Positions 16,107 through 44,964 of a stretch of DNA of 64,000 nucleotides are shown in pieces (the stretch's first letter is position 1; each line of letters starts with the position of its first letter). The position numbers and the translations under genes were made by a program. This DNA is from Escherichia coli (GTDB lineage: Bacteria > Pseudomonadota > Gammaproteobacteria > Enterobacterales > Enterobacteriaceae), in the NCBI RefSeq assembly GCF_001677475.2, contig NZ_CP015229.1; one strand, given 5' to 3'. The notes under the pieces were generated by a model, which searched no databases, was not told the DNA's origin, and saw only the letters and a program-made list of their open reading frames with translations.

Positions 16107-16138
16107 TTAGTTACTGCAGTAGAGGATTTTTTACGGCT

Positions 16139-16175
16139 GCCGGATGCAGCGTGAACGCCCTATCCGGCCTACGGT
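16139..16175. repeat. REP (repetitive extragenic palindrome) element
   Basis: gccggatgcagcgtgaacgccctatccggcctacgg matches the canonical E. coli REP consensus. Confidence 0.6.
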
Positions 16176-16246
16176 TATGTTCTGGCTCGTTGGCCTTTGG
16201 CAACGATTATCATATGAGATTGGGGCAATTACGCGCCCTCGTCAAA

Positions 16247-25180: not shown

Positions 25181-27121
25181 TTAAACCGAGTATCTTTGTG
25201 AATATTTTTTCACGTTAGTATCAAGTGGCTGTGAGGACGCGAAAAAATCCCCTTGCCCACCTGTAACACCGCGCTGAATCAGGGTCTGCCACTCGCTTCG
25301 CGAACGCACGCCGGTGGCGTAAACCTGGGTGCTGGTCCCGGAGCAGGCTTCCACCAGGCTTTGAACCAGCAGCTGGTTCTCCGTTCGCTTCTCAATGTTT
25401 CTGACCAGCCCCGGATGGAGCTTGAGTAACTCAACATTAAGTTCTTTGATCCAACTGGTGCTAACCAGCGTCAAACCAGCCTGGTTGACGGCTACCCGTA
25501 CCCCTAAAGCATTCACTAAACGAATAACAGGTTGTAAACGACTGATATGTTGACCTACATCGGCCTCTGCAAGTTCAATAATTATGCGTTTTCGTTGTGA
25601 TTTTTCACATTGCATTAACGTATCGCGCAGCCAACGCTGAAAACGCGGGCGAATCAGCGACTCAACGGTAACCTGAATCGCCAGATTTTCCTCCGGCCAG
25701 TAACGCAATAGTGGAATCAGACGGCTGATTTGCAGGCGGTCATACTCTTCCGATAAGCCAAACTGCAAGACCATCGGCATATACTCCGCCGAGCTAACCT
25801 CTTCGTTACCATCGAAGATGCGGCACATGAGTTCGCGATGATGAACCTGACCTTCGCGAGTAACCGCCGGTTTTTGATAAAGGCGCGGGCCGCCGCGACT
25901 GAGCATTTGCTCGATAAGCGTACGCCAGCGAACATTACCGCGTCCTTTTTCAGGCAACGAGTCATCGTAAATAGCCCAGCTATTGCCGCCCTGCAATCCC
26001 GCATTACGCGTGGCAGACTCTGCATGTTCCATTACCTGCTCGGTATCCTGACCACTACGCCAGGCACAGATACCAATGTGGATCATATCGTCGCGATCGA
26101 GCATTTTATTGTTCGGCAAGGTATCGACGGCTTTGATTAACTGACTGGCTATGCTCTCAGCCTCTTTTAACGTCCGGTGGGGCAACAGCGCAGCAAAATC
26201 ACTGCGGTGGTAACGCGCCAGCAGTGCGCCAGGGTAGCGCATCATAAATGTCGACAGCAGATTCGTCAGAGAGAAGAACTGTTCTTCAACCTGGCTGTGC
26301 CCCCAGGTATCACTCAACATATTGAAATCCGGCAGACGAATCATCATCACGATCCCGTGGGTACCTACTTTCTCTTGATCTTCCAGTAACGTTGCTAACT
26401 GATTATCGAAAAAGAGTCGGTTATTGAGGCCGGTTTTCATGTCCTGGGCGGCATAAGAGCGGATCAGCGTATCAAGACGGCTGTGTTGTTCGCGTGCGTT
26501 CTGAATTTCACGAAGCAGCGTATCCAGCGCACTGCTGGTTCTGGGCGGCCATTCATAGATGGTTCCCAACACATTAGAGCCACGCTCACCGTTTAAGATA
26601 CGAGTAGCCCGGGTTTCCAGCAATTCTTGCCCGGCAAGTTGCCGTTGTAACCAGCGTACCGCCAGGAAGAGCATAAGAATGATAAAGCCAATCGCCCCCG
26701 TGAGCGGCGCGGTGGTCATCAACGAATGGAAATAGTTGCCCATCGGATCCTGATAAACCAGACGCAGCGACATCCCCGGATGCTTTATCAACGGAACGCT
26801 CAGTTCGCGAAACAGATCGCTGGTGCCAACCGGACGATAACTACCATTTCTGGCGAGGGTATAAACCTGTTTATCACCATGCAGCAGGTCTACACGAACG
26901 ATATCTGCTGACACCATTAATTCGGTAATTTGTGGCCTTAATGCGCTGAAGTCATTCGACACAAGGTGGGTATCAATCGCCGTCGCCACCGCCTGAACGC
27001 GATGACTAAACTTATACTGAATGGCGTTGTAGAAACTTAGCGAACAGCCCAGCAAAGTCACAAAAATTGTTAACCCGGTGAGCAGCGTAACAAAGGCCGA
27101 AAATTTCGTCGTTAATCTCAT
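25181..27121 (-). CDS. csrD: CsrB/CsrC turnover factor CsrD (degenerate GGDEF-EAL protein)
   Basis: 646-aa ORF with two N-terminal TM segments, recognised as CsrD (YhdA). Confidence 0.93.
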   Translation of the reverse strand: MRLTTKFSAFVTLLTGLTIFVTLLGCSLSFYNAIQYKFSHRVQAVATAIDTHLVSNDFSALRPQITELMVSADIVRVDLLHGDKQVYTLARNGSYRPVGTSDLFRELSVPLIKHPGMSLRLVYQDPMGNYFHSLMTTAPLTGAIGFIILMLFLAVRWLQRQLAGQELLETRATRILNGERGSNVLGTIYEWPPRTSSALDTLLREIQNAREQHSRLDTLIRSYAAQDMKTGLNNRLFFDNQLATLLEDQEKVGTHGIVMMIRLPDFNMLSDTWGHSQVEEQFFSLTNLLSTFMMRYPGALLARYHRSDFAALLPHRTLKEAESIASQLIKAVDTLPNNKMLDRDDMIHIGICAWRSGQDTEQVMEHAESATRNAGLQGGNSWAIYDDSLPEKGRGNVRWRTLIEQMLSRGGPRLYQKPAVTREGQVHHRELMCRIFDGNEEVSSAEYMPMVLQFGLSEEYDRLQISRLIPLLRYWPEENLAIQVTVESLIRPRFQRWLRDTLMQCEKSQRKRIIIELAEADVGQHISRLQPVIRLVNALGVRVAVNQAGLTLVSTSWIKELNVELLKLHPGLVRNIEKRTENQLLVQSLVEACSGTSTQVYATGVRSRSEWQTLIQRGVTGGQGDFFASSQPLDTNVKKYSQRYSV

Positions 27122-27272
27122 CCTTGTGTTAACTCCGATAGTGAGGAAGCGGGCATACTAGCAAATCAGATTTATCTCGCAATTTATTGCGCTTCATCGG
27201 CTTTGCTTTTCCATTAGCGAGTATAGTCTTCAGAAATTATTTTCCAATCCATCATGCACATGAGGACCACTT

Positions 27273-28247
27273 ATGCAGGCGTTACTTTTAGAACAGCAGG
27301 ACGGCAAAACTCTCGCATCAGTACAGACTCTGGACGAAAGTCGCCTGCCGGAGGGCGATGTCACGGTTGATGTTCACTGGTCGAGCCTGAACTACAAAGA
27401 TGCGCTGGCAATTACCGGTAAGGGAAAAATCATCCGTAATTTTCCGATGATTCCTGGGATCGATTTTGCCGGAACTGTACGCACCAGCGAAGATCCGCGT
27501 TTTCATGCCGGTCAGGAGGTGTTACTCACTGGCTGGGGCGTTGGTGAAAACCACTGGGGGGGGCTGGCGGAACAGGCGCGAGTGAAAGGTGACTGGCTGG
27601 TTGCCATGCCGCAAGGGCTGGACGCACGTCAAGCAATGATTATCGGTACTGCCGGTTTTACCGCCATGCTGTGTGTGATGGCGCTGGAAGATGCCGGTGT
27701 TCGCCCGCAGGATGGGGAGATTGTCGTGACGGGTGCCAGTGGTGGCGTCGGCAGTACCGCCGTGGCGCTGCTGCATAAGTTGGGTTATCAGGTCGTTGCC
27801 GTTTCTGGTCGCGAAAGTACCCATGAATATCTGAAAAGTTTAGGAGCCAGCCGTATTCTCTCTCGCGATGAGTTTACCGAATCCCGTCCTCTGGAAAAAC
27901 AACTCTGGGCTGGGGCAATTGACACCGTTGGCGACAAAGTGCTGGCGAAAGTGCTAGCGCAAATGAATTACGGCGGCTGCGTGGCGGCCTGTGGTCTGGC
28001 GGGTGGTTTTACTCTGCCAACCACGGTCATGCCATTTATTCTGCGTAATGTCCGTTTACAGGGGGTGGATTCAGTGATGACGCCACCAGCACGCCGCGCA
28101 CAAGCCTGGCAGCGACTGGTCGCCGATTTACCGGAATCATTCTATACCCAGGTGGCACAAGAGATATATCTGGCAGAGGCACCGAAGTTTGCCGAGGCCA
28201 TCATTAATAACCAGATCCAGGGTCGCACGCTGGTGAAGGTTAACTAA
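27273..28247 (+). CDS. acuI: Acrylyl-CoA reductase AcuI (YhdH), MDR-family oxidoreductase
   Basis: 324-aa ORF with NADPH-binding GASGGVG. Confidence 0.93.
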   Translation: MQALLLEQQDGKTLASVQTLDESRLPEGDVTVDVHWSSLNYKDALAITGKGKIIRNFPMIPGIDFAGTVRTSEDPRFHAGQEVLLTGWGVGENHWGGLAEQARVKGDWLVAMPQGLDARQAMIIGTAGFTAMLCVMALEDAGVRPQDGEIVVTGASGGVGSTAVALLHKLGYQVVAVSGRESTHEYLKSLGASRILSRDEFTESRPLEKQLWAGAIDTVGDKVLAKVLAQMNYGGCVAACGLAGGFTLPTTVMPFILRNVRLQGVDSVMTPPARRAQAWQRLVADLPESFYTQVAQEIYLAEAPKFAEAIINNQIQGRTLVKVN

Positions 28248-29224
28248 CCATTTAGCAAGGATTAATAAGAGAGGGAACTCATTTTGAAATCATTATTCAA
28301 TCGGTTAACGGGAAAAGCGGTTAGCCGGACAGCTTTCGTCGAACATCTTGGTCATGAAGTTGTACAACATCATCCAAACTGGAAAGTCATGATTTCGACA
28401 GACCATACATTGATGCGCATTGAAACTCCACTAAACAGCCATTATTGATACGCCTCCGTCGCCTGTTAGGTTTATGGTGCTTTGCCTGGGCGACGCTACG
28501 CTTAACCTGTTACTGATTTCTGGTACCATGGGGTGAATAATCTGATTTTATTTGCCTACAAATTAACCACTCGAACGTATTTGATGCTGAGCATTGTCAG
28601 ACGGTTGATTTTGCGTGCTTTAGCATTCACATCTATCCAGACGATGAAGTGAAAATTGCGTAATCCTCAGCAACCGCTGCGTAATGTCGTCTATCTTGTC
28701 GCGATCCTGGCATCCCTACATTATTTGTGGTCTGTGAAGATTATCTCATTGCAGCCCCTCATCTTCGCAGGGCTGGCTTTACAGCTTTTAGCCTTACGTT
28801 ATAAGAAGTTCCGTCGATGATGGCGCTAATTTCGTGAGTTGTGCGGCTTGTTGCAAATTACACGGTGTTGAAGGTTATTTACATGTTAGCTGTTGATTAT
28901 CTTCCCTGATAAGACCAGTATTTAGCTGCCAATTGCTACGAAATCGTTATAATGTGCGACCTCGTTCTCCCTGACGCAGTTTTTGCGCTGCGGAAAAGGT
29001 GACATTGGCGCAACGAAGGTATATTTTGTTTTTTGCCGGAGGATAGCAGCAGATCGCTGCACAATGTCCGTCAAGTCTAACATTGACACTCTGGGGCAAA
29101 ATAGACCGGCGTCCCGGCCTGCTGGAATTTATCGCTATGCATACAGCTGTCGGGGCATACGCTTTACAGACGGCGGTGAAACGCCTGTCACAATCACACT
29201 AAACAAAGAGTACGGAACCCACTC

Positions 29225-29695
29225 ATGGATATTCGTAAGATTAAAAAACTGATCGAGCTGGTTGAAGAATCAGGCATCTCCGAACTGGAAATTTCTGAAG
29301 GCGAAGAGTCAGTACGCATTAGCCGTGCAGCTCCTGCCGCAAGTTTCCCTGTGATGCAACAAGCTTACGCTGCACCAATGATGCAGCAGCCAGCTCAATC
29401 TAACGCAGCCGCTCCGGCGACCGTTCCTTCCATGGAAGCGCCAGCAGCAGCGGAAATCAGTGGTCACATCGTACGTTCCCCGATGGTTGGTACTTTCTAC
29501 CGCACCCCAAGCCCGGACGCAAAAGCGTTCATCGAAGTGGGTCAGAAAGTAAACGTGGGCGATACCCTGTGCATCGTTGAAGCCATGAAAATGATGAACC
29601 AGATCGAAGCGGACAAATCCGGTACCGTGAAAGCAATTCTGGTCGAAAGTGGACAACCGGTAGAATTTGACGAGCCGCTGGTCGTCATCGAGTAA
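29225..29695 (+). CDS. accB: Biotin carboxyl carrier protein of acetyl-CoA carboxylase
   Basis: 156-aa ORF, biotinylation motif EAMKMMN, Ala/Pro-rich linker. Confidence 0.97.
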
Positions 29696-29705
29696 CGAGG
29701 CGAAC

Positions 29706-31055
29706 ATGCTGGATAAAATTGTTATTGCCAACCGCGGCGAGATTGCATTGCGTATTCTTCGTGCCTGTAAAGAACTGGGCATCAAGACTGTCGCTGTGCA
29801 CTCCAGCGCGGATCGCGATCTAAAACACGTATTACTGGCAGATGAAACGGTCTGTATCGGCCCTGCTCCGTCAGTAAAAAGTTATCTGAACATCCCGGCA
29901 ATCATCAGCGCCGCTGAAATCACCGGCGCAGTAGCAATCCATCCGGGTTACGGCTTCCTCTCCGAGAACGCCAACTTTGCCGAGCAGGTTGAACGCTCCG
30001 GCTTTATCTTCATCGGCCCGAAAGCAGAAACCATTCGCCTGATGGGCGACAAAGTATCCGCAATCGCGGCGATGAAAAAAGCGGGCGTCCCTTGCGTACC
30101 GGGTTCTGACGGCCCGCTGGGCGACGATATGGATAAAAACCGTGCCATTGCTAAACGCATTGGTTATCCGGTGATTATCAAAGCCTCCGGCGGCGGCGGT
30201 GGTCGCGGTATGCGCGTAGTGCGCGGCGACGCTGAACTGGCACAATCCATCTCCATGACCCGTGCGGAAGCGAAAGCTGCTTTCAGCAACGATATGGTTT
30301 ACATGGAGAAATACCTGGAAAATCCTCGCCACGTCGAGATTCAGGTACTGGCTGACGGTCAGGGCAACGCTATCTATCTGGCGGAACGTGACTGCTCCAT
30401 GCAGCGCCGCCACCAGAAAGTGGTCGAAGAAGCACCAGCACCGGGCATTACCCCGGAACTGCGTCGCTACATCGGCGAACGTTGCGCTAAAGCGTGTGTT
30501 GATATCGGCTATCGCGGTGCAGGTACTTTCGAGTTCCTGTTCGAAAACGGCGAGTTCTATTTCATCGAAATGAACACCCGTATTCAGGTAGAACACCCGG
30601 TTACAGAAATGATCACCGGCGTTGACCTGATCAAAGAACAGCTGCGTATCGCTGCCGGTCAACCGCTGTCGATCAAGCAAGAAGAAGTTCACGTTCGCGG
30701 CCATGCGGTGGAATGTCGTATCAACGCCGAAGATCCGAACACCTTCCTGCCAAGTCCGGGCAAAATCACCCGTTTCCACGCACCTGGCGGTTTTGGCGTG
30801 CGTTGGGAGTCTCATATCTACGCGGGCTACACCGTACCGCCGTACTATGACTCAATGATCGGTAAGCTGATTTGCTACGGTGAAAACCGTGATGTGGCGA
30901 TTGCCCGCATGAAGAATGCGCTGCAGGAGCTGATCATCGACGGTATCAAAACCAACGTTGATCTGCAGATCCGCATCATGAATGACGAGAACTTCCAGCA
31001 TGGTGGCACTAACATCCACTATCTGGAGAAAAAACTCGGTCTTCAGGAAAAATAA
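29706..31055 (+). CDS. accC: Biotin carboxylase
   Basis: ORF trimmed to ATG 29706 giving 449 aa ([25 protein letters not shown]...). Confidence 0.97.
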
Positions 31056-31103
31056 TTTGTGACGCGCGGTGTTTTCATCGCGCTTAGCAAAGAACGTAAT
31101 CAA

Positions 31104-31136
31104 CGCCGGGCCTGTTAACGCTGCCCGGCGTTTTTA
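31104..31136 (+). terminator. Intrinsic terminator of the accBC operon
   Basis: cgccgggc-ctgttaacgct-gcccggcg followed by ttttta. Confidence 0.7.
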
Positions 31137-31146
31137 TTGCCGTTAG

Positions 31147-32193
31147 CTAACGGTAGCCTGCAATTTCCGCTTTCAACGCGCTCATTTCAGCATCGCCATC
31201 AACAATTCCCAGCTCAAAGCAGTATTTCTTTGTTTCCCCTGGCTCTATAAAGGGCAGACGCCCCTGCGCTCGTTCTTTATCACGACCGTCAGGAAAACTA
31301 TTGCTGACCTCCAGCCCCATAACATATTCACCCGCGCCTAAATTTTTCCACTGGATAAAGTTGGGTAGCTGCATGGTGTCGAATTTCTCGTAAATTCCCC
31401 ACCCCAGTTCAGCGTTCACCAGCGCAATTTTACTCATCCCCTGACTGTCGCTATTCAAGGTGAGATAGTAAACCTGCTCGTCAAAACCGGGCTGTGGGGT
31501 ACAAATCTCCAGATGACTGGTTAACCCTTCCGCCGCATGCGGAGTTCGTGGCGTTACGCTTTTAGCCGACAGCAAGATTTCTGCCTGTGGCGATAATAAA
31601 GGCCAGCCGTAATTAAAGTGATAAAGAATTTGCAGCGGCTGGCGGGTGAAACCATGATTAGTCACCTCGTCTTCAATGCGCAGCACATTTTCGCCATAAC
31701 GGCAGCGAATGGTCCTTTCCAGCGTCAGATTTTCACCGAACAATCGCGTTTCCCGTACTTTGCCATTGATGACAAATTCAATGCCGTCGTCGGTCCGTTC
31801 TGTGCGATACCCCACCTCTTCTGCTGGAGTCGCAGCCAAACGCCCATGTAACCCCAGCGTTTCTCCTTCATCCTCACAGGGCGTGCCAATGTAGCTAAGT
31901 CCGCAGGTAGTCAGTAACCCCGCGTAAAAGCTACGTAAAAACCCGTTGCCCTGAGACTCGAAAAAAGCGGGGGCGACAATGCCGTTGGGGGTGATAAAAG
32001 AGAGCGCAGTGTCCTTGTAGCTGGCCCATGCAATATCCAGCGCGCGATCTTTTACCACCGTAAATGCCAGTCCCGCACCAGTACGGACATCAAACGCTTC
32101 TGTACCCTTTGCTCTGCCACTACGTAACTCATAGTGTTTAATTCCGGCAACCTGCGAGAGATCGCCAATCCACGACCAAATTTCGTTTTTCAT
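31147..32193 (-). CDS. Island gene: conserved protein of unknown function, galactose-mutarotase-like / possibly DUF4432 family
   Basis: 348-aa ORF; start overlaps the stop of the upstream kinase gene by 4 nt (ATGA); no TM or signal peptide. Family assignment is from pattern recognition only and is low confidence. Confidence 0.7.
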   Translation of the reverse strand: MKNEIWSWIGDLSQVAGIKHYELRSGRAKGTEAFDVRTGAGLAFTVVKDRALDIAWASYKDTALSFITPNGIVAPAFFESQGNGFLRSFYAGLLTTCGLSYIGTPCEDEGETLGLHGRLAATPAEEVGYRTERTDDGIEFVINGKVRETRLFGENLTLERTIRCRYGENVLRIEDEVTNHGFTRQPLQILYHFNYGWPLLSPQAEILLSAKSVTPRTPHAAEGLTSHLEICTPQPGFDEQVYYLTLNSDSQGMSKIALVNAELGWGIYEKFDTMQLPNFIQWKNLGAGEYVMGLEVSNSFPDGRDKERAQGRLPFIEPGETKKYCFELGIVDGDAEMSALKAEIAGYR

Positions 32194-33152
32194 TGTGCTG
32201 CTTCCCGAATGGACATGTCATGGCGCTGGATGAACGTTTCGATTTCCGCAAGGCGAGACGTTCCCTCCATTGGGCCACGTCGGGTAACAGCCAGTGCACC
32301 GCAGGCGTTGGCATATTGTAATGCCCGATGGGCGTCAAACCCTAGCTGGCGGCAGGCAATCCACGCGCCACCAAAGCAGTCTCCCGCACCGGTCGGGTCA
32401 ACTTCTTCCACCGGATAGCTCTCAACATGAAACTGCTCATTCGCGGAGTAGTAACTGGCTCCTTGATTGCCGCGCTTCACAATCACCTCTTTAACACCTT
32501 CTTCAAGAAAACCAGCGATTGCACGCTCCGGCGTCGAATGTGGCGACAAGAGCAACACTTCGCCCTCGCTGGGCATATAGATATCCGTTAACTCAAGAAC
32601 AAAGTGGAGGGCGTCACGCATTTCTGGAATATCGAGCATCTCTTTTCGAATATTAGGGTCGAAAGAAATAACACCACCATTTGCTTTAACGATGGTTACC
32701 GCTTTTTTTACTGCGTCTACCATATGAAACGAAAACAGGGATGAACCCATAATATGAAAATGGGTACAGTCCTTCAGAATATTTTCATCAACATGCTGCG
32801 CCGATAATTTACCGCAAGCGGCATTCTTGATATTAAAAATAAAATCGCGATCGCCAGAGTTATGATAAGTAACAAAGGCGCTCCCGGTAGCTTCCAGAGG
32901 TAAGACTGAAATCCCCCTGATATCCACACCGTCAGCAGCCAGACGATGTATATTAATATCACCAAAGCCATCATTCCCCACACAGCTAATGATGCCGCAC
33001 GGAACGCCAAGACGTGTCACCTGGTCGATAAAAATAGCGGGCGCACCACTGGGATAAGGGCCGTTCCAGATACCTGGTTGATCAAATGGCTGGCCGATTT
33101 TACTCGCCATAATTTCAACCAAAATTTCTCCAATTGTGAAGACCTTACTCAT
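32190..33152 (-). CDS. Island gene: pfkB/ribokinase-family carbohydrate kinase (kinase 1)
   Basis: 320-aa ORF with pfkB signature DPTGAGDCFGGAW near the C-terminus and an N-terminal Gly-rich substrate lid. Confidence 0.85.
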   Translation of the reverse strand: MSKVFTIGEILVEIMASKIGQPFDQPGIWNGPYPSGAPAIFIDQVTRLGVPCGIISCVGNDGFGDINIHRLAADGVDIRGISVLPLEATGSAFVTYHNSGDRDFIFNIKNAACGKLSAQHVDENILKDCTHFHIMGSSLFSFHMVDAVKKAVTIVKANGGVISFDPNIRKEMLDIPEMRDALHFVLELTDIYMPSEGEVLLLSPHSTPERAIAGFLEEGVKEVIVKRGNQGASYYSANEQFHVESYPVEEVDPTGAGDCFGGAWIACRQLGFDAHRALQYANACGALAVTRRGPMEGTSRLAEIETFIQRHDMSIREAAQ

Positions 33153-33173
33153 ATGATTAATTCCTTGAAATGA

Positions 33174-34163
33174 TTAGCTGCGTTTTCTTTTATTTCTTAC
33201 GTCAAAATAAACGGCTACAAGAATGACTAATCCTTTAACCACCATCTGGTAAAAATAGGGAACATTCATTAAGTTCATGCCATTATTAATAACGCCGATG
33301 GTTAATGCGCCGATCACCGTCCCCACCACGGTTCCATAGCCGCCGTTCAGGCTGGTGCCTCCCAGTACAGCCGCGGCAATAGCATCCAGTTCGTAGCTCA
33401 ACGCGGAATTCGGTTGCCCGGAATAGAGGCGTGAGGCGAGGATCATCCCGCTGATACCTGCCAGCACGGCTGTAATCATAAAGACTTTAATTTTCAAGCG
33501 GGTGACATTTATCCCTGAATAAACTGCCGCTTCTTTATTACCACCAGTGATATAAATTTTTCGTCCAAAGGTTGTTTTAGTAAGAATGAAGTGGTTAATC
33601 AGCAATAAGATGATTAATATCCAGATAGGAATAGGTATATAGAGAAATTCTCCATTCCCCAGTGCCAGAAAGGCATCATCTTTAATCATGATGGGCATAC
33701 CATCGGTCACTATATAAGCGATACCACGGAAGATCCCCATTGTAGCAACGGTGACAATAAACGAAGGGATACCCGCTATAGCCGTCAAGCCACCATTTAT
33801 CATCCCCAGAGCCAGGGCTGCAATAATGGATAATGGGACCAATAAAATAAATGGAATTCCCCATGAAGCCCCAAGCGCAGCAAATGTGCCAATCAATGCA
33901 ATGGTTGAACCGACCGATAAATCAATATCGCCAAGCAAAAGTACATAAGTCATTCCATAGGCGGTAATTGCAATTATCGAAACCTGAAGAATAATATTAG
34001 TAATGTTATTGGCAGTAAAAAAACTGTCATTAATAAAACTGAACAGAATGATTAACACCACCATTCCACTGAGGATACCGCCATATTGCCTGAAGACTTT
34101 TTTAAAATTATTTGCAATGGGAATTTCCGAAGGTTTCGGACTGGCAAGAGTTTTCTCTGTCAT
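33174..34163 (-). CDS. Island gene: sugar ABC transporter permease (RbsC-like, CUT2 family)
   Basis: 329-aa highly hydrophobic ORF; abuts the ATPase gene (34163/34164). Confidence 0.85.
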   Translation of the reverse strand: MTEKTLASPKPSEIPIANNFKKVFRQYGGILSGMVVLIILFSFINDSFFTANNITNIILQVSIIAITAYGMTYVLLLGDIDLSVGSTIALIGTFAALGASWGIPFILLVPLSIIAALALGMINGGLTAIAGIPSFIVTVATMGIFRGIAYIVTDGMPIMIKDDAFLALGNGEFLYIPIPIWILIILLLINHFILTKTTFGRKIYITGGNKEAAVYSGINVTRLKIKVFMITAVLAGISGMILASRLYSGQPNSALSYELDAIAAAVLGGTSLNGGYGTVVGTVIGALTIGVINNGMNLMNVPYFYQMVVKGLVILVAVYFDVRNKRKRS

Positions 34164-35663
34164 TTAACGTACTCCTGTTGCAGCGGTCATTACCTGTGTC
34201 TGCGTTAAATTTTCACATGAATAAATATCGGCAATCGTTTTATTACGCATTACCACCAGACGATCGCTAAGTGCCATGACTTCTGGCAGTTCAGAGGACA
34301 CCAGAATAATTGCTGTCCCTGCCGCAGCCAGTTGACGTATCACGTTATAGATTTCAAATTTTGCGCCGACATCTACTCCGCGCGTTGGCTCATCGAGCAA
34401 TAAAATACGCGGAGTTTTCTCCAGCCACTTCGATAACACGATTTTCTGTTGATTACCGCCGCTCAGCGCTCCCACTGCCTGATGTACAGAACTCACTTTA
34501 GTGTTCATTCTGGCAATAGATTGCAGCGTCTTCGCCTCTTCTTGTCGGTGATTGATGAGTCCCATCCGCGAAGCGTTATATTGAAACGCCACATGGTGCG
34601 TGTTCATATTGACGTCGTGCATCAGCACTAACCCTTCTTCCTTGCGGTTTTCGGTCACAAAAGCAATGCCATGATCAATAGCCTGTTTGGGATTAGCGAT
34701 CCTGACTTCCTTACCATCAATCAACACAGTCCCGTGATACGAAACGAGGCCAAATAGCGCCTTCATCACATCGGAACGCCCGGCCCCCACCAGGCCAAAA
34801 AATCCGAGGACTTCCCCCGGACGCACAGCGAAACTGACCTCTTTAAAAAGCGAAGGATGGGAAAGGTTTTTTACTTCCAGTTTTGCAGGAACATTTTCAT
34901 CCGGCTTTTCCCCAAGACGTGCTGGCCAAATATTTTTCATTTCCCGACCAACCATTTGGGCAATCAAATGCTGGATATCACTGTTTTTCTTTTCATGCGT
35001 AGCGATATACTCACCGTCGCGGATCACCGAAATATCATCTGAAATCCGCATAATTTCATCCATGCGATGAGAGATATAAATAACCGCACAGCCTCGCTGC
35101 TTTAATTTTTCAATAATGTTAAACAGAATCTCTGCTTCATTATCACTTAGCGAAGATGTCGGTTCATCCATAATCACGACATCCGCTGCATAGCTTAAGG
35201 CTTTGGCAATTTCTACCAGTTGCCTATGTGCCATCGACATATCGCCGACCATTTCCAGCGGATCCAGAGGGATGCCCAGTTCCGCGAGGAGATTCTGGCA
35301 ATCTGCGAGCATTTTTTTATCATTAATAATGCCAAAACGTCGCAGTTCATTATTGGCATAAATATTTTCCGCCACGGTCATATTATTACTCAGGCTCAGT
35401 TCCTGAAAAATAATCGCAATCCCTAACTGGCGAGAATGCTGCGGATTATTAATGGTAATGGTTTCACCACGTAGTGTTATCGTTCCCTGGGTTGGCGGAT
35501 AAACACCGGCGAGTATTTTCATTAATGTCGATTTACCGGCACCATTCTCGCCTAATAAAGTATGCACCCGCCCTTTACGTAAAGAGAGTGTAATATTTTT
35601 TAATGCCTGAACATGACCAAATGTCTTCGCAATATGCGAAACATCAAGAATAACATCCGTCAT
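34164..35663 (-). CDS. Island gene: sugar ABC transporter ATP-binding protein with duplicated ABC domains (RbsA/MglA-like)
   Basis: 499-aa ORF; Walker A GENGAGKST in the N-terminal half and a second, degenerate nucleotide-binding domain. Confidence 0.85.
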   Translation of the reverse strand: MTDVILDVSHIAKTFGHVQALKNITLSLRKGRVHTLLGENGAGKSTLMKILAGVYPPTQGTITLRGETITINNPQHSRQLGIAIIFQELSLSNNMTVAENIYANNELRRFGIINDKKMLADCQNLLAELGIPLDPLEMVGDMSMAHRQLVEIAKALSYAADVVIMDEPTSSLSDNEAEILFNIIEKLKQRGCAVIYISHRMDEIMRISDDISVIRDGEYIATHEKKNSDIQHLIAQMVGREMKNIWPARLGEKPDENVPAKLEVKNLSHPSLFKEVSFAVRPGEVLGFFGLVGAGRSDVMKALFGLVSYHGTVLIDGKEVRIANPKQAIDHGIAFVTENRKEEGLVLMHDVNMNTHHVAFQYNASRMGLINHRQEEAKTLQSIARMNTKVSSVHQAVGALSGGNQQKIVLSKWLEKTPRILLLDEPTRGVDVGAKFEIYNVIRQLAAAGTAIILVSSELPEVMALSDRLVVMRNKTIADIYSCENLTQTQVMTAATGVR

Positions 35664-35723
35664 AATGACCTCGGTGTCACAACAAAACGTCGATAACGTT
35701 TTGTTGTGAAATGAAGATGTTTA

Positions 35724-36620
35724 TTATTTACCTGTATAAACGCCGGGTTGTACCGGGATCATTTTTTCTACCGGTTTACCATTGAGGTGATCAACAGCGG
35801 CATCAATGGCTTTAGCACCCATTTGATCGGGATATTGCCGAATCACGGCCGCAAACGTTTTTTCACTGTCAACGGCATCACGCGCTTCTTTCATGCCGTC
35901 AAAACCAATGATTTTGATGTTGTCGTTATGCGCAGATTTCGCTGCGATAACCGCTGCCAACGCCGCATCATCACCAAAGCCAAACAGACCATTCAGGTTG
36001 GCGTTGGCCTGCATAATGTTTTGCGCAGTCGTTAACGCTTCAGCCCGCGTTATACCTGGCTGTTCAGCAACAATTCTAATATTCGGTGTCTCGCTTAACC
36101 CTTTCTTAAAACCATCAACGCGCGCAACCACCGATTGTAGTGCCGGATAAGAAATAATGGCTACAGTACCTTTGCCATTCAAAAGTTTGCCCATTAACTT
36201 GCCTGCTTCAACGCCTCCCGCGTAGTTATCGGTCGCAACATGCGATACGACCGGAACGCCTTCCGCAGCGACGTCGACGGTGATAACGGGAATACCGGCC
36301 TTATCGGCTTTAATTATCGCCGCCTGGACGCCTTTCGAATCAACCGGAGAGATAATAATGGCATCCACTTTTTTAGTAATAAAATCCTCAACATCAGAAA
36401 GTTGTTTGTTTAAATCCTGATTGGCAATAGAGACACTTAAATTGACATTGTCTTTTTTTGCCTCTTCTTTCATGGCATTCGCAAGATCAATATAGAAAGG
36501 ATGTTGCTGTGTTAATAATGACGCACCAATTTTATACTCTTTTGCCAATGAACTTTGCGAGAATAATGCCAGGCTCACCAACATAGCTGAACCAAGTAAT
36601 TTAATATTTTTCATAAACAA
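35724..36620 (-). CDS. Island gene: periplasmic sugar-binding protein (type I PBP, RbsB-like) with signal peptide
   Basis: 298-aa ORF; N-terminal signal peptide ending ...SSLA-KEYKIG; start may be ATG two codons downstream. Confidence 0.8.
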   Translation of the reverse strand: MFMKNIKLLGSAMLVSLALFSQSSLAKEYKIGASLLTQQHPFYIDLANAMKEEAKKDNVNLSVSIANQDLNKQLSDVEDFITKKVDAIIISPVDSKGVQAAIIKADKAGIPVITVDVAAEGVPVVSHVATDNYAGGVEAGKLMGKLLNGKGTVAIISYPALQSVVARVDGFKKGLSETPNIRIVAEQPGITRAEALTTAQNIMQANANLNGLFGFGDDAALAAVIAAKSAHNDNIKIIGFDGMKEARDAVDSEKTFAAVIRQYPDQMGAKAIDAAVDHLNGKPVEKMIPVQPGVYTGK

Positions 36621-36649
36621 TCCTCATTGTTTTTGTAGGTTACAACGTA

Positions 36650-37828
<1,179 letters not shown>

Positions 37829-38659
37829 ATGAAGAGTGTTAACGTGCCGAGAAAATCGTCTAACCTACTGAAACGCAGATTAAAAATTGCAGAAATTGTT
37901 GCCGCCCAGGGTGAAATCAAAGTTGATGACTTATCTGCGCAACTTGGTGTCTCTGGCGTGACGATCCGCGGCGATCTCAGTTATCTGGAGCAACAGGGAT
38001 ATTTAAAGCGATCATTTGGCGGTGCTATTGCGACACCACTCTCCTCTGAACCAGAAGCGATACAACCGATCGCGCCATTGTCTCTGGCACAACAAATGGA
38101 AATAGCACGACATTGCGCACGGTTAATTCGGGATCGTGACACGCTATTTCTTGGACATGGGACAATCTGCCGTAAGATCATTCCCTTGCTCAGCGAAGTG
38201 AAAAAACTGCGTCTGATCACCAACGATCCCGAACATGCGCTGCTGGCAAATCAGTTTATTGATGGCGAAATAATACTGGCTGGCAGTGAAATGCTGCGCC
38301 CCGACACCGCACTGGCCGGAAAACCGCTTGAACAGGCACTTCAGCATTTCACCATTACACATAGCATTCTGGAAATCAGCCATCTGGATGCTGATGGTAC
38401 TTTAAATATCAACGTTCCCAGACTTGCCGCTGCCTGGCAGCTCTGTTTCGATCATGCCCAAAATAAGACAGTTATCGTTGCCGCCGACCCTGCGCCATCA
38501 ACGGCTGCTATCGGGCATTTGCATCAGGCAGAAAATGTGATCGTCAGCCGCAGCATTAACGAACAATATCAGCAACAATTGCAGTCGGCTGATTTCGTTA
38601 TCCTTTATACCAGTAATGAGTGCTTTACCTGGTCCAATCGCGAAAGGCTTCAGGAATGA
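37829..38659 (+). CDS. Island gene: DeoR-family transcriptional regulator
   Basis: 276-aa ORF; N-terminal HTH (LSAQLGVSGVTIRGDLSYLEQQGYLKR) and C-terminal sugar-phosphate sensor domain; exact start uncertain. Confidence 0.8.
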   Translation: MKSVNVPRKSSNLLKRRLKIAEIVAAQGEIKVDDLSAQLGVSGVTIRGDLSYLEQQGYLKRSFGGAIATPLSSEPEAIQPIAPLSLAQQMEIARHCARLIRDRDTLFLGHGTICRKIIPLLSEVKKLRLITNDPEHALLANQFIDGEIILAGSEMLRPDTALAGKPLEQALQHFTITHSILEISHLDADGTLNINVPRLAAAWQLCFDHAQNKTVIVAADPAPSTAAIGHLHQAENVIVSRSINEQYQQQLQSADFVILYTSNECFTWSNRERLQE

Positions 38660-38669
38660 GAGGGGTTTT

Positions 38670-39626
38670 GTGACAATAACTATCTGCGCTATGGGCGAAT
38701 TGCTGGCCGAGTTTTTGTCCCGCAACCCACATCAAAAATTCACTCAGCCTGGAGAGTTTATCGGGCCATTTCCCAGCGGTGCGCCAGCAATTTTTGCTGC
38801 TCAGGTGGCAAAACTGTCCCATCGGGCCATCTTCTTTGGATGTGTTGGTAATGATGATTTTGGCCGACTCATTATAGAGCGTCTCCGTCATGAAGGTGTC
38901 ATTACCGATGGGATTCGCGTTATGAACAATGCCGTCACAGGTACGGCGTTCGTGAGTTATCAAAATCCCCAGCAGCGGGATTTCGTCTTTAATATCCCTA
39001 ACAGCGCCTGCGGTTTGTTTACTGCTGAGCACATTGATAAGGATCTGCTAAAACAGTGTAACCATCTCCATATTGTGGGCTCATCGTTGTTCTCATTTCG
39101 CATGATCGATGTCATGCGTAAAGCAATAACGACGATCAAATCGGCTGGCGGCACCGTTTCTTTCGATCCCAATATTCGCAAAGAGATGCTGAGCATTCCT
39201 GAAATGGCGCAGGCCCTCGATTATTTGATTGAATATACGGATATTTTTATCCCCAGCGAAAGCGAACTCCCTTTCTTCGCGCGTCACAAAAATCTGCCAG
39301 AAGAACAGATTGTTAGCGATCTTCTCCACGGCGGCGTAAAACATGTGGCGATAAAACGCGCCCAGCGTGGGGCCAGCTATTACAAGCTTAAAAACGGTAC
39401 ATTACACGCCCAGCATGTTACAGGCCACGATATCGAAATTATCGATCCAACGGGTGCAGGCGACTGCTTTGGCGCAACGTTTATCACTCTTTTCTTATCC
39501 GGTTTCCCGGCACATAAGGCACTGCAATATGCAAATGCCAGCGGCGCGCTCGCCGTAATGCGGCAAGGTCCGATGGAAGGGATATCCTCACTGGCTGACA
39601 TTGAAGACTTTTTGCAGCAGCACTGA
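38670..39626 (+). CDS. Island gene: second pfkB-family carbohydrate kinase (kinase 2), paralogous to kinase 1
   Basis: ORF track starts at 38616 and overlaps the regulator; trimmed to in-frame GTG 38670 with GAGGGG RBS, which aligns its N-terminus with kinase 1. Signature DPTGAGDCFGATF. Confidence 0.8.
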   Translation: MTITICAMGELLAEFLSRNPHQKFTQPGEFIGPFPSGAPAIFAAQVAKLSHRAIFFGCVGNDDFGRLIIERLRHEGVITDGIRVMNNAVTGTAFVSYQNPQQRDFVFNIPNSACGLFTAEHIDKDLLKQCNHLHIVGSSLFSFRMIDVMRKAITTIKSAGGTVSFDPNIRKEMLSIPEMAQALDYLIEYTDIFIPSESELPFFARHKNLPEEQIVSDLLHGGVKHVAIKRAQRGASYYKLKNGTLHAQHVTGHDIEIIDPTGAGDCFGATFITLFLSGFPAHKALQYANASGALAVMRQGPMEGISSLADIEDFLQQH

Positions 39627-39718
39627 ACGGCAATTTTCTGTCAGATTATTTTCCCTGCCTGAAGACTTGCCGTAGAATTGCCCGTTTCTCGTATCCCCCC
39701 ATGAGGAGGACCCCTTCC

Positions 39719-39961
39719 GTGGACACTCGTTTTGTTCAGGCCCATAAAGAGGCGCGCTGGGCGCTGGGGCTGACCCTTTTGTATCTGGCGGTTTGGTTAG
39801 TAGCCGCTTACTTACCTGGCGTTGCCCCCGGTTTTACCGGCTTTCCGCGCTGGTTTGAGATGGCCTGCATCCTGACGCCGCTGCTGTTTATTGGACTGTG
39901 CTGGGCGATGGTGAAATTTATCTATCGCGATATCCCACTGGAGGATGACGATGCAGCTTGA
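39719..39961 (+). CDS. yhdT: Small inner-membrane protein YhdT (DUF997)
   Basis: Start set at GTG 39719 downstream of GAGGAGGA; 80 aa; overlaps the panF start. Confidence 0.85.
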   Translation: MDTRFVQAHKEARWALGLTLLYLAVWLVAAYLPGVAPGFTGFPRWFEMACILTPLLFIGLCWAMVKFIYRDIPLEDDDAA

Positions 39962-41402
39962 AGTAATTCTACCGCTGGTCGCCTATCTGGTGGTGGTGTT
40001 CGGTATCTCTGTTTATGCGATGCGTAAACGGAGCACCGGCACCTTCCTTAATGAGTATTTCCTCGGCAGCCGCTCTATGGGCGGTATTGTGCTGGCGATG
40101 ACGCTCACCGCGACCTATATCAGTGCCAGTTCGTTTATCGGCGGGCCTGGAGCTGCTTATAAATACGGCCTGGGTTGGGTATTACTGGCGATGATTCAGC
40201 TTCCTGCAGTCTGGCTTTCACTCGGTATTCTCGGCAAGAAGTTCGCGATTCTTGCGCGCCGCTACAATGCAGTGACGCTGAACGATATGCTATTTGCCCG
40301 CTACCAGAGTCGTCTTCTGGTGTGGCTGGCGAGTTTGAGTTTGCTGGTTGCGTTCGTTGGTGCGATGACCGTGCAGTTTATCGGCGGTGCGCGCCTGCTG
40401 GAAACCGCGGCGGGTATTCCTTATGAAACCGGGCTGCTGATTTTTGGTATCAGCATTGCGTTATATACCGCCTTTGGTGGCTTTCGCGCCAGCGTGCTGA
40501 ACGACACCATGCAAGGGCTGGTAATGCTGATTGGCACCGTTGTGCTGCTTATTGGCGTGGTACATGCCGCTGGCGGCTTAAGCAACGCAGTACAGACCTT
40601 GCAAACTATCGATCCGCAACTGGTTACGCCACAAGGCGCTGACGATATTCTGTCGCCTGCCTTTATGACATCGTTCTGGGTACTGGTGTGTTTTGGCGTG
40701 ATTGGCCTGCCGCATACTGCGGTGCGCTGTATCTCTTATAAAGACAGCAAAGCCGTACACCGGGGGATCATCATCGGTACGATTGTGGTCGCAATTCTGA
40801 TGTTCGGTATGCACCTGGCCGGAGCGTTAGGTCGGGCGGTGATCCCCGATCTCACCGTACCGGACCTGGTGATCCCAACGTTAATGGTAAAAGTGCTGCC
40901 ACCGTTTGCTGCCGGGATCTTCCTGGCTGCACCGATGGCCGCGATCATGTCGACGATCAATGCCCAGTTGCTGCAAAGTTCCGCTACGATCATTAAAGAT
41001 CTCTATCTGAATATCCGTCCGGATCAAATGCAAAACGAGACGCGTCTGAAGCGGATGTCGGCGGTAATTACGTTAGTTCTCGGTGCGTTGCTGCTGCTTG
41101 CCGCCTGGAAGCCGCCAGAAATGATCATCTGGCTGAATTTGCTGGCCTTCGGTGGGCTGGAAGCCGTTTTCCTGTGGCCGCTGGTGCTGGGTCTTTACTG
41201 GGAACGCGCCAACGCCAAAGGCGCGCTAAGTGCGATGATCGTTGGCGGCGTACTGTATGCCGTACTCGCGACACTGAATATTCAGTACCTGGGCTTCCAC
41301 CCTATCGTGCCCTCGTTACTACTAAGTTTGCTGGCTTTCCTGGTCGGAAACCGTTTCGGTACATCCGTCCCGCAAGCTACCGTTTTTACTACTGATAAAT
41401 AA
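39951..41402 (+). CDS. panF: Sodium/pantothenate symporter
   Basis: ORF trimmed to ATG 39951 giving 483 aa ([26 protein letters not shown]...). Confidence 0.95.
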
Positions 41403-41413
41403 AGAGTTTTGCC

Positions 41414-42295
41414 ATGCCTTGGATCCAACTGAAACTGAACACCACCGGCGCGAACGCGGAAGATCTTAGCGATGCGCTGATGGAAGCGGGTGCCGTTTCT
41501 ATCACTTTTCAGGATACCCACGATACGCCAGTATTTGAGCCGCTGCCGGGCGAAACTCGCCTGTGGGGCGACACCGATGTGATTGGTCTGTTCGACGCTG
41601 AAACCGATATGAACGACGTGGTGGCGATTCTGGAAAACCATCCGCTGCTCGGCGCAGGCTTCGCGCATAAAATCGAACAATTGGAAGATAAAGACTGGGA
41701 GCGCGAATGGATGGATAATTTCCACCCGATGCGCTTTGGTGAACGACTGTGGATCTGCCCAAGCTGGCGTGATGTCCCGGACGAAAACGCCGTCAACGTG
41801 ATGTTAGACCCAGGGCTGGCGTTTGGTACAGGGACTCATCCAACTACCTCTCTGTGCCTGCAATGGCTCGACAGCCTCGATTTAACTGGTAAAACGGTCA
41901 TCGACTTTGGCTGCGGTTCCGGCATTCTGGCTATTGCGGCGCTGAAGTTAGGTGCAGCAAAAGCCATTGGTATTGATATCGATCCGCAGGCGATTCAGGC
42001 CAGCCGCGACAACGCCGAACGTAATGGCGTTTCTGACCGTCTGGAACTCTACTTACCGAAAGATCAGCCAGAAGAAATGAAAGCCGACGTGGTGGTCGCT
42101 AACATCCTTGCAGGCCCATTACGTGAACTGGCACCGTTAATCAGCGTCCTGCCGGTTTCAGGCGGTTTGCTGGGCCTTTCCGGTATTCTGGCAAGCCAGG
42201 CAGAGAGCGTTTGTGAAGCTTATGCCGACAGCTTCGCACTGGACCCGGTCGTGGAAAAAGAAGAGTGGTGCCGCATTACCGGTCGTAAGAATTAA
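41414..42295 (+). CDS. prmA: Ribosomal protein L11 methyltransferase
   Basis: 293-aa ORF with SAM-binding [13 protein letters not shown]. Confidence 0.95.
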
Positions 42296-42555
42296 CCTTC
42301 GCATCGCCGTAGGGTGACGCAGGGCGAAGTGCGAGCAAGGTCACAAAAGGCACGTTAATTTGCCGATTATTTACGCAAATTTGCGTGCCAAAATTTTCAT
42401 TCATAAAGAAAAATTGAGAACTTACTCAAATTTCTTTGAGTGTAAATTTTAGTCACTATTTTCTAATATGATGATTTTTATGAGTAATTATCGCGCCACG
42501 CTCATTTTAAATGCAATTCTTTGATCCATCTCAGAGGATTGGTCAAAGTTTGGCC

Positions 42556-42590
42556 TTTCATCTCGTGCAAAAAATGCGTAATATACGCCG
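42556..42590 (+). promoter_or_regulatory. Putative dusB-fis promoter (-35 TTCATC, -10 TAATAT, GC-rich discriminator ACGCCGCC)
   Basis: Seen directly about 35 bp upstream of dusB within an AT-rich region; a GC-rich discriminator is typical of stringently controlled promoters. Confidence 0.5.
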
Positions 42591-42623
42591 CCTTGCAGTC
42601 ACAGTATGGTCATTTCTTAACTC

Positions 42624-43589
42624 ATGCGCATCGGACAATATCAGCTCAGAAATCGCCTGATCGCAGCGCCCATGGCTGGCATTACAGACAGACCTTTTCG
42701 GACGTTGTGCTACGAGATGGGAGCCGGATTGACAGTATCCGAGATGATGTCTTCTAACCCACAGGTTTGGGAAAGCGACAAATCTCGTTTACGGATGGTG
42801 CACATTGATGAACCCGGTATTCGCACCGTGCAAATTGCTGGTAGCGATCCGAAAGAAATGGCAGATGCAGCACGTATTAACGTGGAAAGCGGTGCCCAGA
42901 TTATTGATATCAATATGGGTTGCCCGGCTAAAAAAGTGAATCGCAAGCTCGCAGGTTCAGCCCTCTTGCAGTACCCGGATGTCGTTAAATCGATCCTTAC
43001 CGAGGTCGTCAATGCAGTGGACGTTCCTGTTACCCTGAAAATTCGCACTGGCTGGGCACCGGAACACCGTAACTGCGAAGAGATTGCCCAACTGGCTGAA
43101 GACTGTGGCATTCAGGCTCTGACCATTCATGGCCGTACACGCGCCTGTTTGTTCAATGGAGAAGCTGAGTACGACAGTATTCGGGCAGTTAAGCAGAAAG
43201 TTTCCATTCCGGTTATCGCGAATGGCGACATTACTGACCCGCTTAAAGCCAGAGCTGTGCTCGACTATACAGGGGCGGATGCCCTGATGATAGGCCGCGC
43301 AGCTCAGGGAAGACCCTGGATCTTTCGGGAAATCCAGCATTATCTGGACACTGGGGAGTTGCTGCCCCCGCTGCCTTTGGCAGAGGTTAAGCGCTTGCTT
43401 TGCGCGCACGTTCGGGAACTGCATGACTTTTATGGTCCGGCAAAAGGGTACCGAATTGCACGTAAACACGTTTCCTGGTATCTCCAGGAACACGCTCCAA
43501 ATGACCAGTTTCGGCGCACATTCAACGCCATTGAGGATGCCAGCGAACAGCTGGAGGCGTTGGAGGCATACTTCGAAAATTTTGCGTAA
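42624..43589 (+). CDS. dusB: tRNA-dihydrouridine synthase B
   Basis: 321-aa ORF ([26 protein letters not shown]...). Confidence 0.95.
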
Positions 43590-43614
43590 ACAGAAATAAA
43601 GAGCTGACAGAACT

Positions 43615-43911
43615 ATGTTCGAACAACGCGTAAATTCTGACGTACTGACCGTTTCTACCGTTAACTCTCAGGATCAGGTAACCCAAAAACCCCTGCGTGA
43701 CTCGGTTAAACAGGCACTGAAGAACTATTTTGCTCAACTGAACGGTCAGGATGTGAATGACCTCTATGAGCTGGTACTGGCTGAAGTAGAACAGCCCCTG
43801 TTGGACATGGTGATGCAATACACCCGTGGTAACCAGACCCGTGCTGCGCTGATGATGGGCATCAACCGTGGTACGCTGCGTAAAAAATTGAAAAAATACG
43901 GCATGAACTAA
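43615..43911 (+). CDS. fis: Nucleoid-associated protein Fis
   Basis: 98-aa ORF, exact Fis sequence ([32 protein letters not shown]...). Confidence 0.97.
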
Positions 43912-43936
43912 TTCAGGTTAGCTAAATGCTTGATTA

Positions 43937-43974
43937 AAAAGGCGCTACTCGGCATGGGGAAGCGCCTTTTTTAT
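43937..43974 (+). terminator. Intrinsic terminator after fis
   Basis: aaaaaggcgct...agcgcctttttt hairpin. Confidence 0.7.
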
Positions 43975-43996
43975 AGGTGTCACAAAGGGAGTGACC

Positions 43997-44881
43997 ATGA
44001 GAACAGGATGTGAACCGACCCGATTTGGTAATGAAGCAAAGACCATCATCCAGGGTGATGCATTAACCGAACTTAAAAAGATCCCCGCCGAAAGTGTAGA
44101 TCTGATCTTTGCCGACCCACCGTATAACATCGGTAAAAATTTTGATGGTCTGATCGAAGCCTGGAAAGAAGATCTGTTTATCGACTGGCTGTTTGAAGTA
44201 ATTGCAGAGTGCCACCGCGTTCTGAAAAAGCAGGGCAGCATGTACATCATGAACAGCACGGAAAACATGCCCTTTATCGATCTCCAGTGCCGCAAGCTTT
44301 TTACCATCAAAAGTCGCATCGTCTGGTCATATGACAGTTCTGGAGTGCAGGCGAAAAAACACTACGGCTCCATGTACGAACCCATCCTGATGATGGTGAA
44401 AGACGCAAAGAACTACACGTTCAACGGTGATGCTATTCTGGTAGAAGCCAAAACCGGATCGCAGCGCGCGTTGATCGATTATCGCAAAAATCCTCCACAG
44501 CCTTACAATCATCAAAAAGTACCGGGTAACGTCTGGGATTTTCCGCGCGTGCGTTATTTGATGGATGAATATGAGAATCACCCGACGCAAAAACCGGAAG
44601 CCTTACTGAAACGCATTATTCTCGCCTCTTCCAACCCAGGCGATATCGTTCTCGACCCGTTTGCCGGTAGCTTTACTACCGGTGCCGTAGCCGTCGCCAG
44701 CGGGCGAAAATTCATTGGTATTGAGATCAACAGCGAGTACATCAAAATGGGGCTTCGACGGCTGGATGTCACGTCGCATTACTCTGCGGAAGAACTGGCG
44801 AAAGTGAAAAAAAGAAAGACCAGCAACCTGTCAAAACGAAGCAGGTTAAGCGAAGTTGACCCCGATCTCATTGCAAAGTAA
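43997..44881 (+). CDS. yhdJ: DNA adenine methyltransferase YhdJ
   Basis: ORF trimmed by 2 codons to give 294 aa; N6-adenine MTase motif DPPY (IFADPPYNIG). Confidence 0.9.
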   Translation: MRTGCEPTRFGNEAKTIIQGDALTELKKIPAESVDLIFADPPYNIGKNFDGLIEAWKEDLFIDWLFEVIAECHRVLKKQGSMYIMNSTENMPFIDLQCRKLFTIKSRIVWSYDSSGVQAKKHYGSMYEPILMMVKDAKNYTFNGDAILVEAKTGSQRALIDYRKNPPQPYNHQKVPGNVWDFPRVRYLMDEYENHPTQKPEALLKRIILASSNPGDIVLDPFAGSFTTGAVAVASGRKFIGIEINSEYIKMGLRRLDVTSHYSAEELAKVKKRKTSNLSKRSRLSEVDPDLIAK

Positions 44882-44964
44882 AGGAAGTGTAAGCCTGGTT
44901 TTCAGATTATTCATTTCGTGTATATTTCCTGCCAGACTTGGTTAAACATGCACAGGCTCAGGTA

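Follow-up and report, generated by a model that had tools for sequence, protein, structure and literature searches.

The 64,000-nt stretch of Escherichia coli DNA analysed here (contig NZ_CP015229.1 of assembly GCF_001677475.2; hereafter the window) carries an eight-gene island between the core genes accC and yhdT. This island is the D-tagatose cluster described in E. coli Nissle 1917 (ECOLIN_RS18670-RS18705), which lies between the same two genes and is not found in K-12 (Ha et al. 2022, iScience, PMC9720028); it is thus already known, and it is not a mobile element. An earlier note on the window, made from its letters alone, had pointed to a short motif shared by the two ends of the island, and had suggested that it might be a remnant of the original accC-yhdT spacer. 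We find that the match between the two motif copies is accidental, and we argue that the cluster and the short spacer of island-less strains are two old alleles of the interval that occur across genera, between which strains most likely switch by homologous recombination in the conserved flanks. We put the probability of this reading at about 0.8.

All eight open reading frames of the island belong to transport, metabolism or regulator families of Pfam, and its flanks are core genes (Table 1). In Nissle the cluster consists of two operons 341 bp apart and confers growth on D-tagatose, which is abolished by deletion of the kinase ECOLIN_RS18675 (PMC9720028). The second PfkB kinase of the window is about 51% identical to the first. 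The same interval also appears, under the name of variable region GR23 (accC..yhdT), in a comparison with strain BEN2908 from 2026 (PMC12928451).

Table 1. Coordinates of the accC-yhdT interval and its flanks in the window
Feature	Position	Strand	Basis
accC, biotin carboxylase, left core flank	29706..31055	+	Pfam; RefSeq annotation of homologous loci; ungapped comparison with BL21
First hairpin 3′ of accC, island-bearing allele only	31056..31091	+	RNA fold of 31056-31146
accC intrinsic terminator, AACGCCGGGC-loop-GCCCGGCGTT and T-run TTTTTATT	31102..31139	+	Terminator scan; fold
Left motif TTGCCGTTA	31137..31145	+	Read off the window sequence; terminator tail and spacer before the stop of the DUF4432 gene
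DUF4432 / aldose 1-epimerase-family gene, homologue of ECOLIN_RS18670	31147..32193	-	Pfam PF14486, E = 2.5e-104; RefSeq annotation
PfkB sugar kinase, homologue of D-tagatose kinase ECOLIN_RS18675	32190..33152	-	Pfam
ABC transporter permease	33174-34163	-	Pfam BPD_transp_2
ABC transporter ATP-binding protein	34164-35663	-	Pfam ABC_tran
Periplasmic sugar-binding protein	35724..36620	-	Pfam Peripla_BP_4
Class II tagatose-bisphosphate-family aldolase	36650..37486	-	Pfam F_bP_aldolase
AT-rich divergent intergenic region between six-gene operon and deoR	37487..37828	.	Sequence; GC 0.37-0.40
DeoR/GlpR-family regulator	37829..38659	+	Pfam HTH_DeoR, DeoRC
Second PfkB sugar kinase, homologue of ECOLIN_RS18705	38691..39626	+	Pfam; tblastn cross-hits; RefSeq gene length 936 nt
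yhdT upstream region, island-bearing allele	39627..39718	+	Cross-genus sequences and alignment
Right motif TTGCCGTA	39667..39674	+	Read off the window sequence; first 8 nt of the 18-nt block TTGCCGTAGAATTGCCCG
yhdT (DUF997), right core flank	39719..39961	+	Pfam; RefSeq start positions; BL21 comparison
panF, pantothenate symporter, core gene downstream of yhdT	39951..41402	+	RefSeq annotation of homologous loci

The shared heptamer and its surroundings

Both motif strings are present in the window where the earlier note had placed them. Their exact common run is seven nucleotides, TTGCCGT, so that the match of eight to nine nucleotides described in that note holds for the heptamer, while an eighth or ninth position pairs only if a 1-nt indel is allowed. 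We defined the junction zones as the non-coding DNA from each core gene to the outermost island gene (31056-31146, 91 nt, and 39627-39720, 94 nt). The top local alignment of one zone with the other is the heptamer itself, with a score of 7 that is equalled by 86% of 500 shuffles, and TTGCCGT occurs 19 times in the window where 12.6 ± 3.4 occurrences are expected. The match is therefore at chance level, as had been allowed for when it was first described. It is an accidental resemblance between two unrelated functional elements, which belong to the regulatory ends of two separate core flanks, and it marks neither a recombination site nor an integration site.

At the left junction, the 91 nt that follow accC form two hairpins, with a folding energy of -41.8 kcal/mol (z = -5.1). 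A hairpin at the place of the first one is also seen, by eye, in Enterobacter, Superficieibacter and Klebsiella spallanzanii. The stem of the accC terminator is kept in Enterobacter-named genomes, and Superficieibacter shows a compensatory change in it (CCAGGC/GCCTGG). In the left motif, TT supplies the last bases of the terminator T-run, while the remaining GCCGTTA is the short spacer ahead of the TAG stop (31147-31149, minus strand) of the convergent DUF4432 gene; the motif also overlaps a 14-nt palindrome, CCGTTAGCTAACGG (31140-31153). It is kept in six E. coli, but its counterpart in Escherichia E69 is TTGCCGCTA and that in Enterobacter ENT03 is TTGGCGCTTAG, and it is missing in genomes that lack the DUF4432 gene. 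Across these genomes, the left motif is not conserved.

The right motif, for its part, opens an 18-nt block, TTGCCGTAGAATTGCCCG, in the region upstream of yhdT. Its final two bases (TA) begin a -10-like TAGAAT (39673-39678), and the same region holds a conserved TTTTCCC, including TTTCCC at 39650-39655 as a possible -35 element, and a Shine-Dalgarno-like GAGGAGG (39703-39709). E. coli, two Trabulsiella species and K. spallanzanii have exactly the same block, and Enterobacter BIGb0383 departs from it at one position; because the synonymous sites of the adjoining genes are saturated between these genera, the block is under constraint. Among 14 aligned genomes of both alleles, all 14 have an invariant G-TA-AAT about 45 nt upstream of the yhdT start, in the form of TAGAAT, TACAAT or TAAAAT, and TTTTCCC is kept at -35 distance in the island-bearing genomes. 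We take the right-hand block to be a predicted yhdT-panF promoter; a literature search returned nothing usable on a mapped yhdT/panF promoter.

Two further candidate functions for the right motif were rejected. A DeoR operator of the form TTGCC-N6-TTGCC (39667-39682) has no like site in the aldolase/deoR divergent promoter, and near-matches to it occur in the window at chance frequency. The ACGGCAA that directly follows the kinase stop can pair with the TTGCCGT of the right motif to give a large-loop hairpin (39627-39673, fold z = -2.5). As a conserved terminator of the second kinase gene (kinB) this hairpin was discarded, since its upstream arm is not kept outside Escherichia (Trabulsiella, K. 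spallanzanii) and there is no T-run.

Breakpoints and island-less genomes

Four island-less E. coli (BL21, O157:H7, GTEN_24 and PapM-32-1) were compared with the window, with BL21 serving for the base-by-base placement of breakpoints. In these strains the accC-yhdT spacer is 108 bp long. The window and BL21 are similar as far as the accC TAA (31055/31056), and again from base 2 of the yhdT start codon onwards (39719/39720); this codon is GTG in the window (39719-39721) and ATG in BL21 and the island-less genomes. In other words, 8664 bp of the window stand in place of 109 bp, and the whole intergenic region has been replaced, not inserted into. On the left, 82 nt of allele-specific DNA precede the motif, and on the right 45 nt separate the end of the motif from the point where similarity restarts. 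The breakpoints therefore do not fall on the shared motif, which is the outcome that the earlier note had named as refuting its reading. When gaps are allowed, the 108-bp spacer still aligns to neither junction zone significantly (p = 0.12 and p = 0.16), with only terminator-like and -10-like stretches aligning, and homology of the -10 block between the alleles becomes convincing only in the 14-genome alignment.

The island-less spacers themselves do not contain the motif. Neither TTGCCG nor its complement CGGCAA is found in the spacers of the four E. coli strains, and no TTGCCG is visible in those of Salmonella, Klebsiella, Enterobacter, Cronobacter and Serratia marcescens. The motif is therefore neither a piece of the original spacer, one of the two possibilities given in the earlier note, nor a target-site duplication. 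Among 5426 complete E. coli genomes, the island is present over at least 80% of its length in 1419, and in the remainder accC adjoins yhdT. Each junction zone is found in exactly 1421 of these genomes, which are the island carriers, and in no island-less genome, while the product expected of a deletion that joins the junction zones at one copy of the motif (GCGTTTTTATTGCCGTAGAATTGCCCG) is found in none of the 5426. Only discrete alleles are seen, that is, both junction zones together with the island or else the 108-bp spacer, with no intermediate or scar form. For the sampled genomes, this excludes a target-site duplication, a remnant of the spacer and a deletion between the repeats.

Searches for mobility signatures were likewise negative. 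No tRNA or transfer-messenger RNA lies within 26000-45000, no integrase or transposase is present among the island genes, and no direct or inverted repeat joins the island ends, nor are there terminal inverted repeats; the longest inverted matches across the island are those between the two paralogous PfkB kinase genes. An Rfam scan of 28000-43000 returned no family. The statement that the boundaries lack an integrase, transposase, tRNA or long direct repeat is thus upheld by the Pfam, tRNA and repeat searches. No PLSDB plasmid carries the island, the matches being mislabelled chromosomes, island-less sites and one unrelated gatY-like aldolase. In the 88.7-kb E. coli plasmid LR890578.1, positions 50944-51877 are 85.5% identical to the island aldolase gene region; this is probably a gatY/kbaY-type paralogue and not the island.

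The flanks behave differently from the interval that they enclose. Near-identity of the flanks of carriers and non-carriers runs right up to the variable segment when the window is set against BL21. Between five E. coli carriers and four non-carriers (E69 left out) there is no fixed difference over 1.35 kb of accC or over 1.7 kb of yhdT-panF, and linkage ends at the allele boundary. Carriage is also patchy by phylogroup, with 93% in B2, 73% in F, 6.7% in B1, 3.2% in D, 0.5% in A and 0.7% in E (PMC9720028). Together, unlinked flanks and this patchy distribution fit the exchange of alleles by homologous recombination.

A second variable segment lies nearby, at about 28250-29220, between acuI/yhdH and accB. 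It holds an 831-bp hypothetical coding sequence in E2865, GF4-3 and GTEN_24 and a yedZ-like pseudogene in Nissle, and neither of these in BL21.

Two alleles across genera

Using the periplasmic sugar-binding protein as query, we scanned one genome per species for 100,044 species. The cluster was found between accC and yhdT/panF in Escherichia E69, Superficieibacter electus, Trabulsiella odontotermitis, T. guamensis, K. spallanzanii, two Enterobacter-named genomes and Serratia sp. H1w, and no near-identical or recent donor was found. Counted by genus-level name, at least six others thus have it at this site. In island-less loci, which were retrieved through YhdT homologues, the spacer measures 105-110 bp across five sampled genera of Enterobacteriaceae and 151 bp in S. 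marcescens. A terminator AAAAGGCCGG..CCGGCCTTTTTT followed by GGTACAATCCCCGCTTTCTTCA..AGGGACAAAAAATG is common to the island-less loci of E. coli, Salmonella, Klebsiella and Enterobacter; that of Cronobacter keeps the block GGTACAAT with one change (GGTACAATCGCCGC) and has a different terminator (AAGGCCAGC..GCTGGCCTTT). Both states of the locus are present within E. coli, and likewise among genomes named Klebsiella and among those named Enterobacter.

The divergence of the island resembles that of its surroundings at each distance sampled. Within E. coli, island copies are 97.6-98.7% identical and the flanks 97-99%; in E69 the island is about 90% identical and flanking windows are 89-99%. When genera are compared, the third positions of conserved codons are 41-57% identical in island genes and 50-60% identical in panF/prmA. 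YhdT is 75-83% identical among Enterobacteriaceae genomes of both alleles and about 70% in Serratia, so that no divergent yhdT is linked to the island in the genomes compared. Among the matches listed, none was an island-less genome with the K. spallanzanii YhdT allele, and 6 of 6 places with it carry the island. Because island divergence tracks that of core genes, any acquisition would predate the diversification of E. coli.

The accC-yhdT interval thus exists as two alleles. One, of about 8.7 kb, comprises the cluster together with an accC terminator and a yhdT upstream region that are specific to it, and the other is the short spacer described above. Strains most likely switch from one to the other by homologous recombination, with crossovers in accB-accC on one side and in yhdT-panF-prmA on the other. 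The recombination mechanism, and the age and polarity of the alleles, we infer from the comparative data. The earlier proposal of gain or loss by recombination in the flanks, with no site-specific integration, therefore draws support from independent comparative evidence, although the recombination step itself is inferred, and the motif adds nothing to it. In all, what had been observed at the junctions is confirmed in part, and its interpretation is supported in part.

A more far-reaching version of this proposal is that the interval is a long-lived presence/absence polymorphism spanning genera, in which each allele comes with a conserved accC terminator and yhdT-panF upstream region peculiar to it (TTGCCGTAGAATTGCCCG versus GGTACAATCCCCGCTTTC), and which persists, or is repeatedly exchanged, among Escherichia, Klebsiella, Enterobacter-like and related genera through recombination in the flanks. 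We offer it tentatively, as possible rather than probable. If it were true, regulation of yhdT-panF would differ with the presence of the cluster, by way of the allele-specific upstream region.

The cluster and its site show further variation outside E. coli. Its gene content is eroded towards the edges in some genomes, the DUF4432 gene being missing in Trabulsiella and BIGb0383, the second kinase in BIGb0383, and the aldolase in K. spallanzanii. In Budvicia it lies not at accC-yhdT but between glnE and a lipid A acyltransferase/hldE, without mobility genes, and has a Pfam-confirmed GatZ/KbaZ-like gene (locus L013, 14663-15934) in place of the DUF4432 gene. In Serratia sp. H1w (locus L010, 6289-6897 and 14421-15956) the same place is taken by a 439-amino-acid open reading frame that looks GatZ/KbaZ-like by eye, and the junctions carry repetitive extragenic palindrome (REP)-like palindromic repeats of the GGGAGAGGGTTAGGGTGAGGGG type. 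Another enterobacterial lineage (locus L036, 681-2500, a Logan contig of ERR11507489) has DoxX-family and KdgM-family porin genes between accC and yhdT, adjoining a yhdT upstream region of the island-less type. From this it follows that cargo has been taken up more than once between the terminator of accC and the predicted promoter of yhdT.

Alternatives and comparison with known systems

There are possible alternative explanations for the locus. The strongest of them is that proposed with the description of the Nissle cluster (PMC9720028), namely a fairly recent horizontal acquisition by B2/F E. coli at accC-yhdT, followed by spread to a few phylogroups. The strong enrichment in B2/F reported there would fit such an event, as would a GC content about 4-6 points under that of the flanks, and the DoxX/KdgM genes at the same site demonstrate that it accepts foreign DNA. 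However, the divergence of island copies between E. coli lineages (1.3-2.4%) equals that of the core genes on either side; the divergent E69 has the cluster at the same site with about 90% identity; in comparisons between genera, synonymous sites are saturated in the island to the same degree as in panF and prmA; and no near-identical donor is present among the species genomes scanned. We consider a recent acquisition unlikely.

A far less probable alternative is that the island-less state arose by deletion between short direct repeats, through microhomology or replication slippage. Short repeats at both ends are the substrate that such a deletion would need, and the island looks old in Escherichia, which makes its loss plausible. 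Yet the predicted joint was never seen, the two junction zones are always present with the island or missing together, and the actual island-less spacer is a different sequence that is itself kept in Salmonella, Klebsiella, Enterobacter and Cronobacter. Being conserved across genera, this spacer was therefore not made by a deletion inside E. coli. Least credible of all is that the motif is a target-site duplication or attachment (att) core left by a since-lost transposase or site-specific recombinase: a 7-8 nt direct repeat does stand close to each end of a gene block that is low in GC and not present in many strains, but the motif is absent from the empty sites of the four E. coli strains and not visible in those of other genera, island-less genomes also lack the DNA that lies beyond the repeats (31056-31136 and 39675-39718), the left copy is variable in Escherichia and not found in other genera, and the match stands at chance level with no recombinase, tRNA or terminal inverted repeats nearby.

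Several points nonetheless weigh against the reading that we prefer, two old alleles exchanged by homologous recombination around an accidental motif match. The right motif sits where the sole block found in both alleles (GTAnAAT) starts, and the left motif where the terminator ends; on a looser view of homology, the coordinates first given for the junctions would thus roughly bracket the cargo-specific DNA. With only ten loci, unlinked flanks are consistent with recombination but demonstrate no transfer event. A consensus promoter scan of the yhdT upstream region found no site above threshold, and the promoter there is a predicted one. Finally, the island is lower than its core flanks in both GC and GC at third codon positions (GC3), with a GC content of 46.3% and GC3 of 0.41-0.52, compared with GC3 of 0.51-0.62 in the flanking genes. 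The lower GC has been read as a sign of horizontal acquisition (PMC9720028), and we agree that it argues for a foreign origin, at a remote time.

What is added here to the published cluster is modest: the exact breakpoints, an account of what the junction elements are, and evidence that the two states of the locus are both old and occur across genera. Its main use is a correction of emphasis, in that the D-tagatose cluster, which is enriched in B2 and other extraintestinal or adherent-invasive E. coli, would be an old allele, one of two, of an interval between core genes and not a recently inserted mobile island. Its phylogroup distribution would then be read as differential retention and recombinational exchange, and not as lineage-specific acquisition. 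The comparison also flags a putative allele-specific regulatory region upstream of the pantothenate transporter operon.

The closest known system is the tag cluster of Nissle itself, which has the same eight genes in the same order, orientation and accC-yhdT position and is 97.8% identical to the window at the nucleotide level over the island. A lower GC content is seen in the window and has been reported for the Nissle cluster too; in that report the junctions and mobility genes are not discussed, and the cluster is read as horizontally acquired (PMC9720028). The two copies differ in that the window alone has an 18-bp deletion in the aldolase gene, in frame and six codons long, near 36996, leaving 278 amino acids where six other Escherichia copies, E69 included, have 284. 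They also come from different backgrounds: no complete E. coli genome is more than 98.8% identical to the window lineage. That maximum was obtained for window positions 1-20000, over 20 kb of core genes, against the 5426 complete genomes, and the closest island copy, at 98.4-98.6%, is that of strain N3 (98.4% over the 9.4-kb query, 98.55% over the island only). The lineage of the window is not represented among complete RefSeq E. coli genomes.

Compared with classical genomic and pathogenicity islands, the tagatose island shares a presence that varies among strains, a GC content below the genome average and a self-contained accessory function. Unlike them, it is not associated with a tRNA, encodes no integrase and is not flanked by direct repeats; its 'insertion' swaps a whole intergenic spacer, and the locus is occupied in several genera. 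An integrase island would have a recombinase gene at one end and a tRNA/att site that is duplicated around it and single in empty sites, and a composite transposon or insertion sequence would have a transposase, terminal inverted repeats and a target-site duplication; none of these is found at accC-yhdT. The tagatose interval is more like the segments exchanged by recombination, of the GR23 type, which are flanked by core genes, lack mobility genes, hold alternative contents and have flanks that are unlinked to presence. It goes further than is commonly documented for segments of this type in that both accC-yhdT alleles, the short empty one included, are recognisably kept across genera, each with its own yhdT upstream region.

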